A DNA stretch of 31,287 bases. Origin: a virus. Its lineage: Duplodnaviria > Heunggongvirae > Uroviricota > Caudoviricetes. The DNA is taken from the IMG/VR virus record IMGVR_UViG_2548876857_000005, positions 1 through 31,287 of that record. The stretch is one strand, 5' to 3'. Position 1 is the stretch's first letter; each line of letters opens with the position of its first letter. Below are positions 1 through 3,000 of this stretch, in pieces. Made by a program: the position numbers.

Positions 1-3000
1 GTCATCGGGCATTATCTGAACATAAAACACTATCAATAAGTTGGAGTCATTACCCATTGCATTGTCAGAAATAGTTATCCATTAAAGGCTGGCTATTCCA
101 AACAGGATGTTGATTACAAAAATGTAATCAACATGTAAGGTTTATACTCTTCAATATGCGTATAATTTTCCTTATTTTGTTAACTTTAAATAACAAGCTA
201 TGCACGAGGTAAAGTCGGATAAGTTTATCTGGATGTAATATATATTATTTGTAGTGTTTATAACTTTATTTCATGATAACCAATAAAAGGAGTTTTTTAT
301 GAGGAACATAATGGCAGGTTTTTTAATATTCCTGTCTTCTGCTGCTTATGCTGATATCAATCTGTATGGTCCTGGTGGCCCGCATACAGCCTTGCTTGAT
401 GCAGCCAAACTTTATGCCGAAAAAACAGGTATTATAGTGAACGTTCATTACGGCCCACAGAACAAATGGAATGAAGATGCCAAAAAAAATGCAGATATCT
501 TGTTTGGCGCATCAGAACAATCTGCTCTGGCTATCATTCGGGACCATAAAGACAGCTTCAGTGAAAAAGATATTCAGCCTCTTTATCTGCGAAAAAGTAT
601 TTTACTGGTAAAGAAAGGTAATCCTAAAAATATCCGGAGTATTGACGACCTGACCAGACCCGGGATTGGCGTAATTGTTAATGATGGTGGTGGTACCAGT
701 AATACATCAGGCACTGGCGTCTGGGAAGATATTGCCGGACGTAAAGGGAATATAGAAACTGTCGCCGCAATCCGAAAAAATATTATTTTATATGCGCCCA
801 ATAGCGGAACTGCACGTAAGGCTCTTGAGAATCAGCCTGAAGCAGATGTCTGGATAACCTGGGCTGACTGGGCAGCCAGTAATCCAGAAATTGGTGATGT
901 CGTGGAAATAGCGCCAGACTACGTGATATGGCGTGATATGAACATTACAGTACGTCAGGATGCAAATGATGAAACCCGTCGATTTGCAGAATGGCTACAA
1001 ACCGATGAAGCGGCGCCTGCATTCAAAAAATATGGCTGGATCAGGAAAGGCACTTGACATCCTCCACGTCCTTCAGGACGTGGATTCTTTTTCCGGATGC
1101 CGCGCCAGCGGCATGTAGGGGCAGCTCACAAAACGGAAAAAATTGTACGCTAAGCCTCGCCAGGTGAACTGAATTCATTCCGATATGGGAATTCCCATAT
1201 CGGACGAAAACGGCTTGCTGTAACGGCAGAGTTAAGTAGAATTGCTGCGGGTGCTTGAGGCTATCTGCCTCGGGCATGAACACCAACGGCAGATAGATAA
1301 AAGCCCCACCCGACTATAAATCGAAGTGAGGCCCCTATATGCTCGTCACATATAGATTGCCTCTTACGGACCGAAAGGTCAAGGAGAAGCAGGCTATGAA
1401 GCAGCAAAAGGCGATGTTAATCGCCCTGATCGTCATCTGTTTAACCGTCATAGTGACGGCACTGGTAACGAGGAAAGACCTCTGCGAGGTACGAATCCGA
1501 ACCGGCCAGACGGAGGTCGCTGTCTTCACAGCTTACGAACCTGAGGAGTAAGAGACCAGGCGGGGGAGAAATCCCTCGCCACCTCTGATGTGTCAGGCAT
1601 CCTCAACGCACCCGCACTTAACCCGCTTCGGCGGGTTTTTGTTTTTATTTTCAACGCGTTTGAAGTTCCGGACGGCGCCGGAATAGAATCAAAAATACTT
1701 AAGTAGCGCGCAGGGAGAAGAGGGATGGACCCCGAACAGGGGAGTGCTATTTATCTGGAAGGATTCTGTTGATGAAAATCGAAGAATTACGTGAAATTTT
1801 TAGTGAAGATGGCCTCTATACTGTGCGCGTTGAGAATGGCGCTATTGTCAGCCACTGCCGTATTAAATGTTTACAGTCTCAACAAAGGAAGAGTGGAGCT
1901 GCGTTAATTCATTTTGTGGATGGGCTTGTGACGGATGGTTTTATTTTGCGTGCAAATGAATTTGTCACATCGTTGCCGTCTCTGAAAGACGCTGGGATTA
2001 AGGCTGGTTTTTCTGCTTTTGAAGATGAGTGAATTCATCTACAATTCAGCGCAGGGCTGAACCCCTGTTGAGTAACACTGTGCCACCGGAGAAAGCCGAT
2101 GGCGCAAAATTCCAGACTACACAATTCTGATAATTCAGCCGTCTTTGCCAGCAGGCACGGGCGGCGTTCTCATGCATTCAAATCTGACTGGTTCCGGCAC
2201 GACCCATGCACTGAAGAACAGGCCGAATGGCTGATTCAGAACTACCGCAGACGTGGGTATGAGTTTAGGAAAGCCCTCAGCCTCGATTATCGTCACTGGA
2301 TAATCTCCGTCAGGCTTCCTTACTCCGAACGCCCACCGCGTCCGTCCCGCACATTCCAGCAACGGATCTGGAGGTAACGTGCGGGTATTACTTCGACCTG
2401 TTCTGGTACCGGAACTCGGGCTGGTGGTCCTTAAGCCAGGTCGTGAATCCATGCAGGTATTTCACAATACCCGGGTACTGGTGGAGCCGGAACCGAAAAG
2501 CATGCGTAATCTGCCGTCCGGGGTCGTTCCTGCCGTTCGCCAGCCGCTGGTGGAAGACAAAACATTGCTGCCATTTTTCAGCGACGAACGAGTGATTCGT
2601 GCTGCTGGTGGTGCTGGTGCATTGTCTGACTGGCTGTTGCGCCATATTAAATCCTGCCAGTGGCCACACGGCGATTATCACCACAGCGAAACTGTCATTC
2701 ACCGTTATGGTACCGGCGCAATGGTGTTGTGCTGGCACTGCGACAACCAGCTACGGGACCAGACATCCGAATCACTCGAGCAACTTGCTCATCAAAACCT
2801 GTCAGCATGGATGATTGACGTCATCGGTCACGCAATAAGCGGTACGCAGGAGCGTGAATTATCTCTGGCTGAATTATCCTGGTGGGCGGTCTGCAATCAG
2901 GTGGCGGACGCGCTACCGGAGGCCGTATTACGTCGTTCTCTGGGGTTACGTGTGGAAAAAATCCGCTCCTTGTACCGCGAAAGCGACATCGTACCGGGAG

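Follow-up and report, generated by a model that had tools for sequence, protein, structure and literature searches.

The DNA analysed here, hereafter the window, is a stretch of 31,287 nucleotides from a tailed phage (Caudoviricetes; IMG/VR record IMGVR_UViG_2548876857_000005). An earlier note, made from the sequence alone, had described near its left end an orphan gene encoding a secreted solute-binding protein. The open reading frame (ORF) was found exactly as described: it occupies 299..1057 on the plus strand, is intact, starts with ATG and encodes 252 amino acids. Its sequence identifies it near-certainly as paa (synonym adfO), the gene of the 'AcfC family adhesin Paa'. We hold with high confidence that the best overall explanation of the locus is a low-GC cargo cassette carrying paa/adfO in the nin region of a lambdoid prophage of pathogenic Escherichia coli. 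The features assigned to the gene and its flanks were as follows.

1-54, minus strand: IS1 end (terminal 54 nucleotides), matching the IS1 ends of more than 5000 plasmids at 100% identity.
107-134, no strand: inverted repeat with perfect 12-bp arms, ATGTTGATTACA-AAAA-TGTAATCAACAT, at the left edge of the conserved cassette.
135-298, plus strand: AT-rich leader, presumed promoter region, with TATAAT at 161-166 and AAGGAG at 287-292.
299-352, plus strand: Sec (type I) signal peptide, residues 1-18, MRNIMAGFLIFLSSAAYA, with cleavage predicted after AYA and before D19; read from the sequence.
353-1057, plus strand: mature Paa/AdfO, 234 amino acids, 25.8 kDa, predicted to have the PEB3/AcfC-family binding-protein fold; stop codon at 1055-1057.
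698-718, plus strand: SNTSGTG loop, presumed oxyanion-binding, residues 134-140, placed by alignment with PEB3 S136-G142.
1063-1094, plus strand: intrinsic terminator from a terminator scan, with a 9-bp stem (6 GC; 1063-1084), a 4-nt loop and then the T-run TTCTTTTTCC.
1097-1114, no strand: second short inverted repeat, ATGCCGC-GCCA-GCGGCAT, at the right edge; read from the sequence.
1249-1398, plus strand: sok RNA (Rfam RF01794, 103.9 bits).
1396-1551, plus strand: hok ORF (hokD in the RefSeq annotation; 'ckf' in the O157 literature), Pfam HOK_GEF 1.2e-23.

NCBI and UniRef list the exact 252-residue sequence under the name 'AcfC family adhesin Paa [Escherichia coli]'. This sequence is identical at 251/252 residues to RefSeq WP_001815900.1, which has the same length, and the sole difference, T249I, results from codon 249 (window 1043-1045), which encodes Ile here and Thr in the common RefSeq Paa (GWIRKGT versus GWTRKGT). 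This T249I allele was found on 22 contigs, and the position lies near the C-terminus, outside the conserved core of the family. At the nucleotide level, window 51-1700 was 99.9% identical to the annotated paa of E. coli O103:H2 12009 and of many Shiga toxin-producing E. coli (STEC). Among complete E. coli genomes, the annotation 'paa: AcfC family adhesin Paa' followed by hokD occurs in O103:H2, O45:H2, O121, O145 and other strains, and at least 80% of window 1-1700 (paa and hokD) was held by 572 of the 5426 genomes (approximately 10%); in those inspected, the segment sits in a lambdoid prophage, with the replication genes on one side and Q on the other. Further, phage records label the gene 'porcine attaching-effacing associated protein Paa/adherence factor AdfO', and Paa matched PHROG 11834 (1.6e-175).

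The Paa/AdfO of attaching-effacing and enterotoxigenic E. coli (z2053; O-island 57 / CP-933O of strain EDL933) is the same gene and has the same neighbours as here (hokD/ckf, rem, DUF968, rusA and Q). The window differs from this reference by T249I and, in the window lineage, by an IS1 located 245 bp upstream. In O157:H7, adfO is z2053 of O-island 57, resembles Paa of porcine enteropathogenic E. coli (EPEC) and is always accompanied by ckf (z2054), a hok-type gene (PMC8565820). paa/adfO is already known, as a colonisation factor of pathogenic E. coli that was described more than 20 years ago, and its presence, place and sequence here are nothing new. Typing of STEC, EPEC and porcine enterotoxigenic E. 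coli routinely includes it as a virulence marker, and correct recognition of the gene matters for annotating the contig as part of an OI-57-like prophage. Of the term 'orphan' in the earlier note, the sense of lacking a transporter holds and the sense of being uncharacterised does not, as this is a named and studied virulence-associated gene.

The signal peptide and the solute-binding-protein features that had been read from the sequence were both borne out. The signal peptide comprises an n-region, MRN, with one Arg, a 13-residue hydrophobic core, IMAGFLIFLSSAA, with a mean Kyte-Doolittle value of 2.1, and the AYA cleavage motif; it was judged from these features and from the alignment with PEB3 of Campylobacter jejuni. 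The crystallised mature PEB3 chains (2hxw, 3fj7) start at the residue aligned with Paa D19. There is no Cys in the whole 252-residue protein and no lipobox, and because Cys is absent throughout, Paa is not a lipoprotein. Residues 20-247 gave a Pfam SBP_bac_11 match that covered positions 1-226 of the 227-position model, with 119.6 bits (cut-off 25) and E = 2.3e-34, and phmmer against the PDB matched PEB3 (3fjg, 5.7e-82, query 11-248) and AcfC of Vibrio cholerae (4jb7, 9.5e-82, query 16-248). The identity was 52.5% to C. jejuni PEB3 over 238 residues and 50% to V. cholerae AcfC. The full-length match to solved structures strongly supports a predicted two-lobed periplasmic-binding-protein fold like that of PEB3 and AcfC, and we regard the fold as settled since identity to three solved structures exceeds 50%. 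Thus, the profile and structure searches that the earlier note had proposed placed the protein in a solute-binding family, and in every sequence test applied Paa fell within the PEB3/AcfC/Paa family.

The mature N-terminus D/E-[IV]-N-x-Y-G-P-G-G is present in Paa, and YG-GGP was invariant across 26 family members in the alignment. PEB3 (2hxw, 3fj7, 3fjg) and Paa have the same mature N-terminus, D-[IV]-N-L-Y-G-P-G-G, and both contain the SNTSGTG loop, in which Paa T136/S137 align with PEB3 T138/S139. As a check of the register, PEB3 K135 lands at the position that distinguishes chain 3fir from chain 3fjg (E versus K). The NTSGT core of the loop was identical in 22/22 aligned loop-bearing members; the first residue of the loop was S, Y or A, and the last changed from G to A once. 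PEB3 T138 and S139 are reportedly ligand-site residues, and their mutation is said to abolish the binding of 3-phosphoglycerate (3-PG) and phosphoenolpyruvate (PEP), in work by Min and colleagues from 2009. The nearest structures outside the family were sulfate-binding proteins (E about 1e-4), followed at a distance by the molybdate-binding protein ModA (E = 0.17); the similarity to the sulfate-binding proteins was local and spanned the SNTSGTG loop (Paa residues about 96-204). By analogy, the ligand of Paa is likely an oxyanion, either sulfate- or phosphate-bearing.

PEB3 and Paa are both orphan solute-binding proteins. Unlike Paa, PEB3 is chromosomally encoded and N-glycosylated, and its K135 corresponds to T133 in Paa; 3-PG/PEP is the established ligand of PEB3, whereas for Paa it would be a candidate. 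In a distant clade of homologues (loci L033, L035, L037 and L039; 34-43% identity), a five-residue deletion removes SNTSG of the presumed loop. Members of this clade probably bind something different, or bind it differently, as judged from the alignment.

Within the window, no ABC (ATP-binding cassette) transporter gene lies downstream of paa, which confirms the claim that no cognate permease or ATPase gene follows it. The upstream side had been left to a check of sequence beyond the window. The window starts inside IS1, and the contig therefore breaks here. In the window lineage, IS1 sits in the remnant of a fimbrial pseudogene, 245 bp upstream of the paa start codon. Most of the contigs that carry the T249I allele end a few hundred bases or less upstream of paa; one of them (L086) begins with a DDE_Tnp_IS1 transposase fragment, and another (L093) reads through, with a 763-nt insertion in the fimbrial pseudogene relative to O103:H2 12009. 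Beyond the insertion, L093 carries the DUF1627 gene and a small ORF, as in O103:H2. No ABC transporter gene was detected upstream of paa in near-identical prophages or in L093, where there were only phage genes and the fimbrial pseudogene. A hidden ABC operon upstream was accordingly rejected, since neither the near-identical prophages nor the contig spanning IS1 contain transporter genes.

The genes leading up to paa in O103:H2 12009, strain UTAK-6 and phage PPompW are, in order, repressor/cro, YdaT, O/P-like replication genes, DUF1627, a small ORF and the fimbrial pseudogene, and those after paa are hokD, rem, DUF968, rusA, Q, lysis genes and lambda-like head and tail genes. The O/P replication genes thus lie on one side of paa and the Q antiterminator on the other, which is the nin region of a lambdoid prophage, and the description of a stand-alone periplasmic binding protein carried by a prophage was correct. 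IS1 lies between the phage early genes and paa, and might stop transcription that starts in the former from running on into the latter.

Window 55-138 is the 3' end of the degraded 'fimbrial protein' pseudogene (its counterpart in L001 is 11555-12088). According to RefSeq, the pseudogene is frameshifted and has an internal stop; it immediately precedes the paa cassette in every related prophage that we examined.

The paa cassette is approximately 1 kb long, low in GC, and extends over about window 107-1118. The GC content was 27.9% in 55-298 and 43.7% in the gene, compared with 51% in 1100-6000. At the left edge, the 9-bp-arm core of the palindrome, TTGATTACA-N4-TGTAATCAA (110-131), occurs once in the window and was found in 0 of 100 shuffles at up to 3 mismatches; as RNA, 107-134 had a folding energy of -13.8 kcal/mol (z -5.4). 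The GATTACA-N4-TGTAATC core was kept in 3/3 fetched prophage copies (L001, L002 and L005) and in one of two IncF plasmid copies (L003), and was degraded on one arm in the other (L004). The palindrome was absent upstream of the homologues of Escherichia albertii, Citrobacter and Edwardsiella. It is possibly an operator, or else the 3' hairpin of the upstream fimbrial pseudogene. To our knowledge, no motif among those of FNR, CRP, TyrR, Fur and LysR-type regulators (T-N11-A) fits it convincingly; we noted a generic T-N11-A resemblance.

Within the leader, the Shine-Dalgarno sequence AAGGAG ends 6 nt ahead of the ATG, and TATAAT and long flanking stretches are invariant between the prophage and IncF plasmid copies. 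A strict sigma-70 scan of 1-298 found no promoter, and on manual inspection the perfect TATAAT at 161-166 had no recognisable -35 element. The earlier note had called the upstream 300 bp AT-rich and promoter-like: the AT-richness stands, although bases 1-54 belong to IS1 and are not native to the locus, and no strict sigma-70 match was obtained. A promoter of its own in the leader (135-298) is plausible but unproven.

Downstream, the strong terminator followed by hokD that had been described was recovered. The terminator starts six bases past the paa stop codon, has a folding energy of -16 kcal/mol (z -4.3), and 0/200 shuffles were as stable; its hairpin is kept, with substitutions, in the plasmid copies. 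The second inverted repeat (1097-1114) is conserved in prophage and IncF plasmid copies, and homology decays past it. The hok/sok locus (1249..1551) lies outside the cassette, yet it is the constant companion of paa.

The cassette also occurs, including its leader and terminator, on IncF plasmids with 87-90% nucleotide identity. Plasmid records matched in 42 cases, 40 of them at less than 95% identity. In the two plasmid copies located (NZ_CP041428.1 and NZ_CP078136.1; L003 5203-5961 and L004 5197-5955), the protein identity was 92%, and the paa-like genes are annotated merely as 'substrate-binding domain-containing protein'. One of the IncF plasmids has the cassette beside replication and toxin-antitoxin genes; the second has it no more than 2 kb from repA, in a region where the PLSDB gene table is sparse. 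No ABC permease or ATPase gene was seen near the cassette on these plasmids. Homology between phage and plasmid copies begins at about window 107-110 and stops shortly past 1114. By its sequence the cassette appears to be a typical moron, because its GC content deviates, it has a terminator of its own and an AT-rich leader, and it sits between phage modules; its promoter is presumed. Lambdoid morons such as bor and lom of lambda and the sodC and nleG cargo of STEC prophages are likewise single cargo genes between phage modules, and they share with paa the deviant GC, the own terminator, the AT-rich leader and a benefit to the lysogen rather than to the phage. paa differs from them in that its promoter is a prediction here and in that the same cassette also circulates on plasmids.

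A species-level scan (one genome per species) detected homologues in Escherichia albertii, Citrobacter, Edwardsiella, Providencia, Aeromonas, Francisella, Vibrio and Endozoicomonas, and further homologues in Flavobacteriia, Burkholderiales, Campylobacterales, Desulfovibrio and metagenome-assembled genomes (MAGs) of spirochaetes. We surveyed 34 loci from other bacteria, with homologues 34-87% identical, for ORFs that contained both Walker A and the ABC signature within 6 kb. ORFs with these ABC-ATPase motifs were present in 5/34 loci, namely four of Vibrio (554-560 amino acids, 2.1 kb away) and one of Aeromonas (4.9 kb away). Membrane genes of ABC, TRAP (tripartite ATP-independent periplasmic) or TTT (tripartite tricarboxylate) transporters were adjacent to the homologue in none of the 34 loci. 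Because these loci likewise lack an ABC partner, the orphan state is a trait of the family. A Pfam scan of 150 neighbouring ORFs from 24 of the 34 loci showed that the flanking genes are heterogeneous. The V. cholerae homologue (L018) is directly downstream of the gene for the chemoreceptor AcfB (dCache and MCPsignal domains), a histidine kinase gene precedes the homologue in two lineages (L024 and L033), and Lipoprotein_15 and ECF (extracytoplasmic function) sigma modules lie beside homologues in Vibrio and Endozoicomonas; apart from these and the channel genes described below, the neighbours were unrelated housekeeping genes.

In four loci, the gene directly upstream of the homologue was of an anion channel or exporter type, either YeiH-like (Cons_hypoth698; L022, L031 and L032) or SLAC1/TehA-like (L026). 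The hosts are Flavobacteriia, Limnobacter, a marine gammaproteobacterial MAG and Burkholderia, and the three homologues that were aligned are 40-41% identical. In two to three of these four loci there is a divergently oriented ORF of the size of a LysR regulator; four neighbour ORFs matched LysR domains in the Pfam census, where they were not assigned to particular loci. The adjacency may be a sign that these lineages have a membrane partner other than an ABC transporter. The question in the field concerns the ligand of the family, its partner and the correctness of the 'adhesin' label, and for the biochemical role of PEB3/AcfC/Paa the survey provides a small comparative footing, not a discovery.

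The biochemical mechanism of Paa is the uncertain step. The account that we favour, which draws on relatives, has in our judgement slightly less than an even chance of being right. Paa would be expressed from the lysogen as a self-contained moron with its own leader and its own terminator, and not as part of a transport operon. After export, mature Paa would close its cleft on a sulfate- or phosphate-bearing ligand, for which sulfated mucin, a glycosaminoglycan or a phosphorylated metabolite are candidates, and ligand binding would promote early mucosal colonisation. The leading options for how this would come about are a direct adhesion or glycan-binding route and a sensory route.

Published phenotypes and properties of relatives bear on this account. 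Formation of attaching-effacing lesions is impaired in paa mutants of porcine EPEC (PMC2749873, PMC10562709), and an adfO mutant of O157:H7 adheres poorly to HeLa cells (PMC8565820) and, according to the literature, releases fewer proteins into the supernatant. PEB3 has been linked to 3-phosphoglycerate (PMC12469816, PMC3417527). AcfC, a periplasmic protein, binds heparin, chondroitin sulfate and mucin, and acts in chemotaxis to mucin, not in cell adhesion (PMC5976639). Expression of the EDL933 homologue was higher in bovine rectum content than in intestinal contents (PMC8524897). The suggestion in the earlier note that the protein could scavenge or sense a ligand for the host overlaps with what has been proposed for these relatives, that is, 3-phosphoglycerate for PEB3 and sulfate and mucin chemotaxis for AcfC, and would apply to Paa by analogy.

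Several points weigh against our account. One review raises the possibility that the PEB 'adhesins' are in fact transport proteins (PMC3417527), and surface adhesion by a soluble, non-lipidated periplasmic protein lacks an explanation. What we say of the ligand, localisation and phenotype of Paa is drawn from relatives and from the literature. A single-sequence AlphaFold2 model was unusable, with a pLDDT (predicted local distance difference test) of 40.2 and a pTM (predicted template modelling score) of 0.26, and the fold rests on identity to solved structures. A functional promoter in the leader is supposed from the sequence, in which no strict sigma-70 match was found, and the IS1 element 245 bp upstream could alter the expression of paa in this strain.

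Paa might act mainly as a periplasmic sensory co-receptor. When loaded with its ligand, it would dock on a host chemoreceptor or sensor kinase, as has been proposed for AcfC with the methyl-accepting chemotaxis protein (MCP) AcfB. The bacterium would thereby be guided to sulfated mucus, and what is recorded as an 'adhesin' phenotype would be a secondary effect. We consider this possible, if on balance unlikely. AcfC (V. cholerae VC0841; 4jb7) resembles Paa in that it lacks an ABC partner, is encoded on a horizontally acquired element and is a colonisation factor. This periplasmic protein binds sulfated glycans and is required for mucin chemotaxis, and is dispensable for cell adhesion (PMC5976639). 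The placement of homologues directly downstream of an MCP gene in V. cholerae (L018) and after histidine kinase genes (L024 and L033), together with the lack of a membrane anchor in Paa, points in the same direction, and the chemotaxis-related genes reported as activated in bovine rectum content include the EDL933 homologue (PMC8524897). However, acfC shares a transcript with acfB, the chemoreceptor gene, on the Vibrio pathogenicity island, whereas paa stands alone on the prophage, and neither on the prophage nor on the plasmids is there an MCP or kinase gene beside it. The published phenotypes of Paa and AdfO are of adherence. We also know of no AcfB orthologue in E. coli, which counts against a sensory role.

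A bolder form of the sensory idea, which we hold to be rather improbable, is that Paa is a portable periplasmic oxyanion sensor and not an adhesin, plugging into an E. coli chemoreceptor, a sensor kinase or a non-ABC anion channel, with 107-134 as the operator of its regulator. The varied neighbours of the homologues (MCP, histidine kinases, YeiH-like and TehA-like channels, and ECF sigma modules) fit a family that switches partners and is independent of ABC transporters. If this were true, acquisition of a 1-kb phage or plasmid cassette would rewire mucus sensing.

More doubtful again is a role as nutrient scavenger, in which Paa, as proposed for PEB3, would pass a phosphorylated or sulfated metabolite (3-phosphoglycerate, for instance) on to a host transporter encoded elsewhere in the chromosome. 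The ligand-site residues T138/S139 of PEB3 are conserved as T136/S137, and the distant homologues directly downstream of YeiH-like or TehA/SLAC1-type genes (L022, L031, L032 and L026) are consistent with a membrane partner of some kind. Yet a membrane partner is known for no member of the family, the 34 loci had no adjacent ABC, TRAP or TTT genes, and a phage or plasmid cassette that spreads alone would need a compatible partner in every host.

That Paa serves the phage, by receptor masking as the earlier note had ventured, by superinfection exclusion or by some other periplasmic anti-phage role, is very improbable. Several lambdoid morons have exclusion roles, and paa is a prophage gene that would be expressed independently of the lytic modules and exported to the envelope. 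On the other side, no PADLOC defence model matched at E <= 0.1, which leaves receptor masking unsupported, the cassette is also on IncF plasmids, homologues reside in chromosomes of unrelated bacteria outside phages, and what has been published on phenotypes relates to colonisation of the host.

A stand-alone molybdate/tungstate-binding, ModA-like protein, the ligand class that had been put forward as an example, is equally hard to credit and was rejected, as the NCBIfam and PDB matches to ModA were far below threshold. Paa shares the Pfam SBP_bac_11 superfamily with the ABC binding proteins Sbp, CysP, SubI and ModA, and there is weak full-length likeness to ModA (TIGR01256, E = 0.0013 over residues 31-246; PDB ModA 8zj6, E = 0.17). 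Nevertheless, scores were far below the cut-offs for Sbp (PRK10752; 22.7 versus 288 bits), CysP (19 versus 308) and ModA (TIGR01256; 18.6 versus 62.5), and unlike ModA, Sbp and CysP, Paa has no adjacent permease or ATPase genes. The closest matches outside the family were sulfate binders, and PEB3 and AcfC, to which identity was at least 50%, have phosphorylated or sulfated ligands.

Two further genes of the same prophage were noted. Window 11389-11703 (plus strand), in the late region, encodes a PerC-family transcriptional activator (Pfam PerC, 3.8e-44). PerC/Pch homologues are known regulators of the LEE island (locus of enterocyte effacement) in EPEC and enterohaemorrhagic E. coli. Downstream of Q, window 5711-7648 (plus strand) encodes a 645-amino-acid protein with DUF1737, SASA and DUF6645 domains, a carbohydrate esterase of the sialate O-acetylesterase type, which is another mucus-related cargo gene on this prophage.

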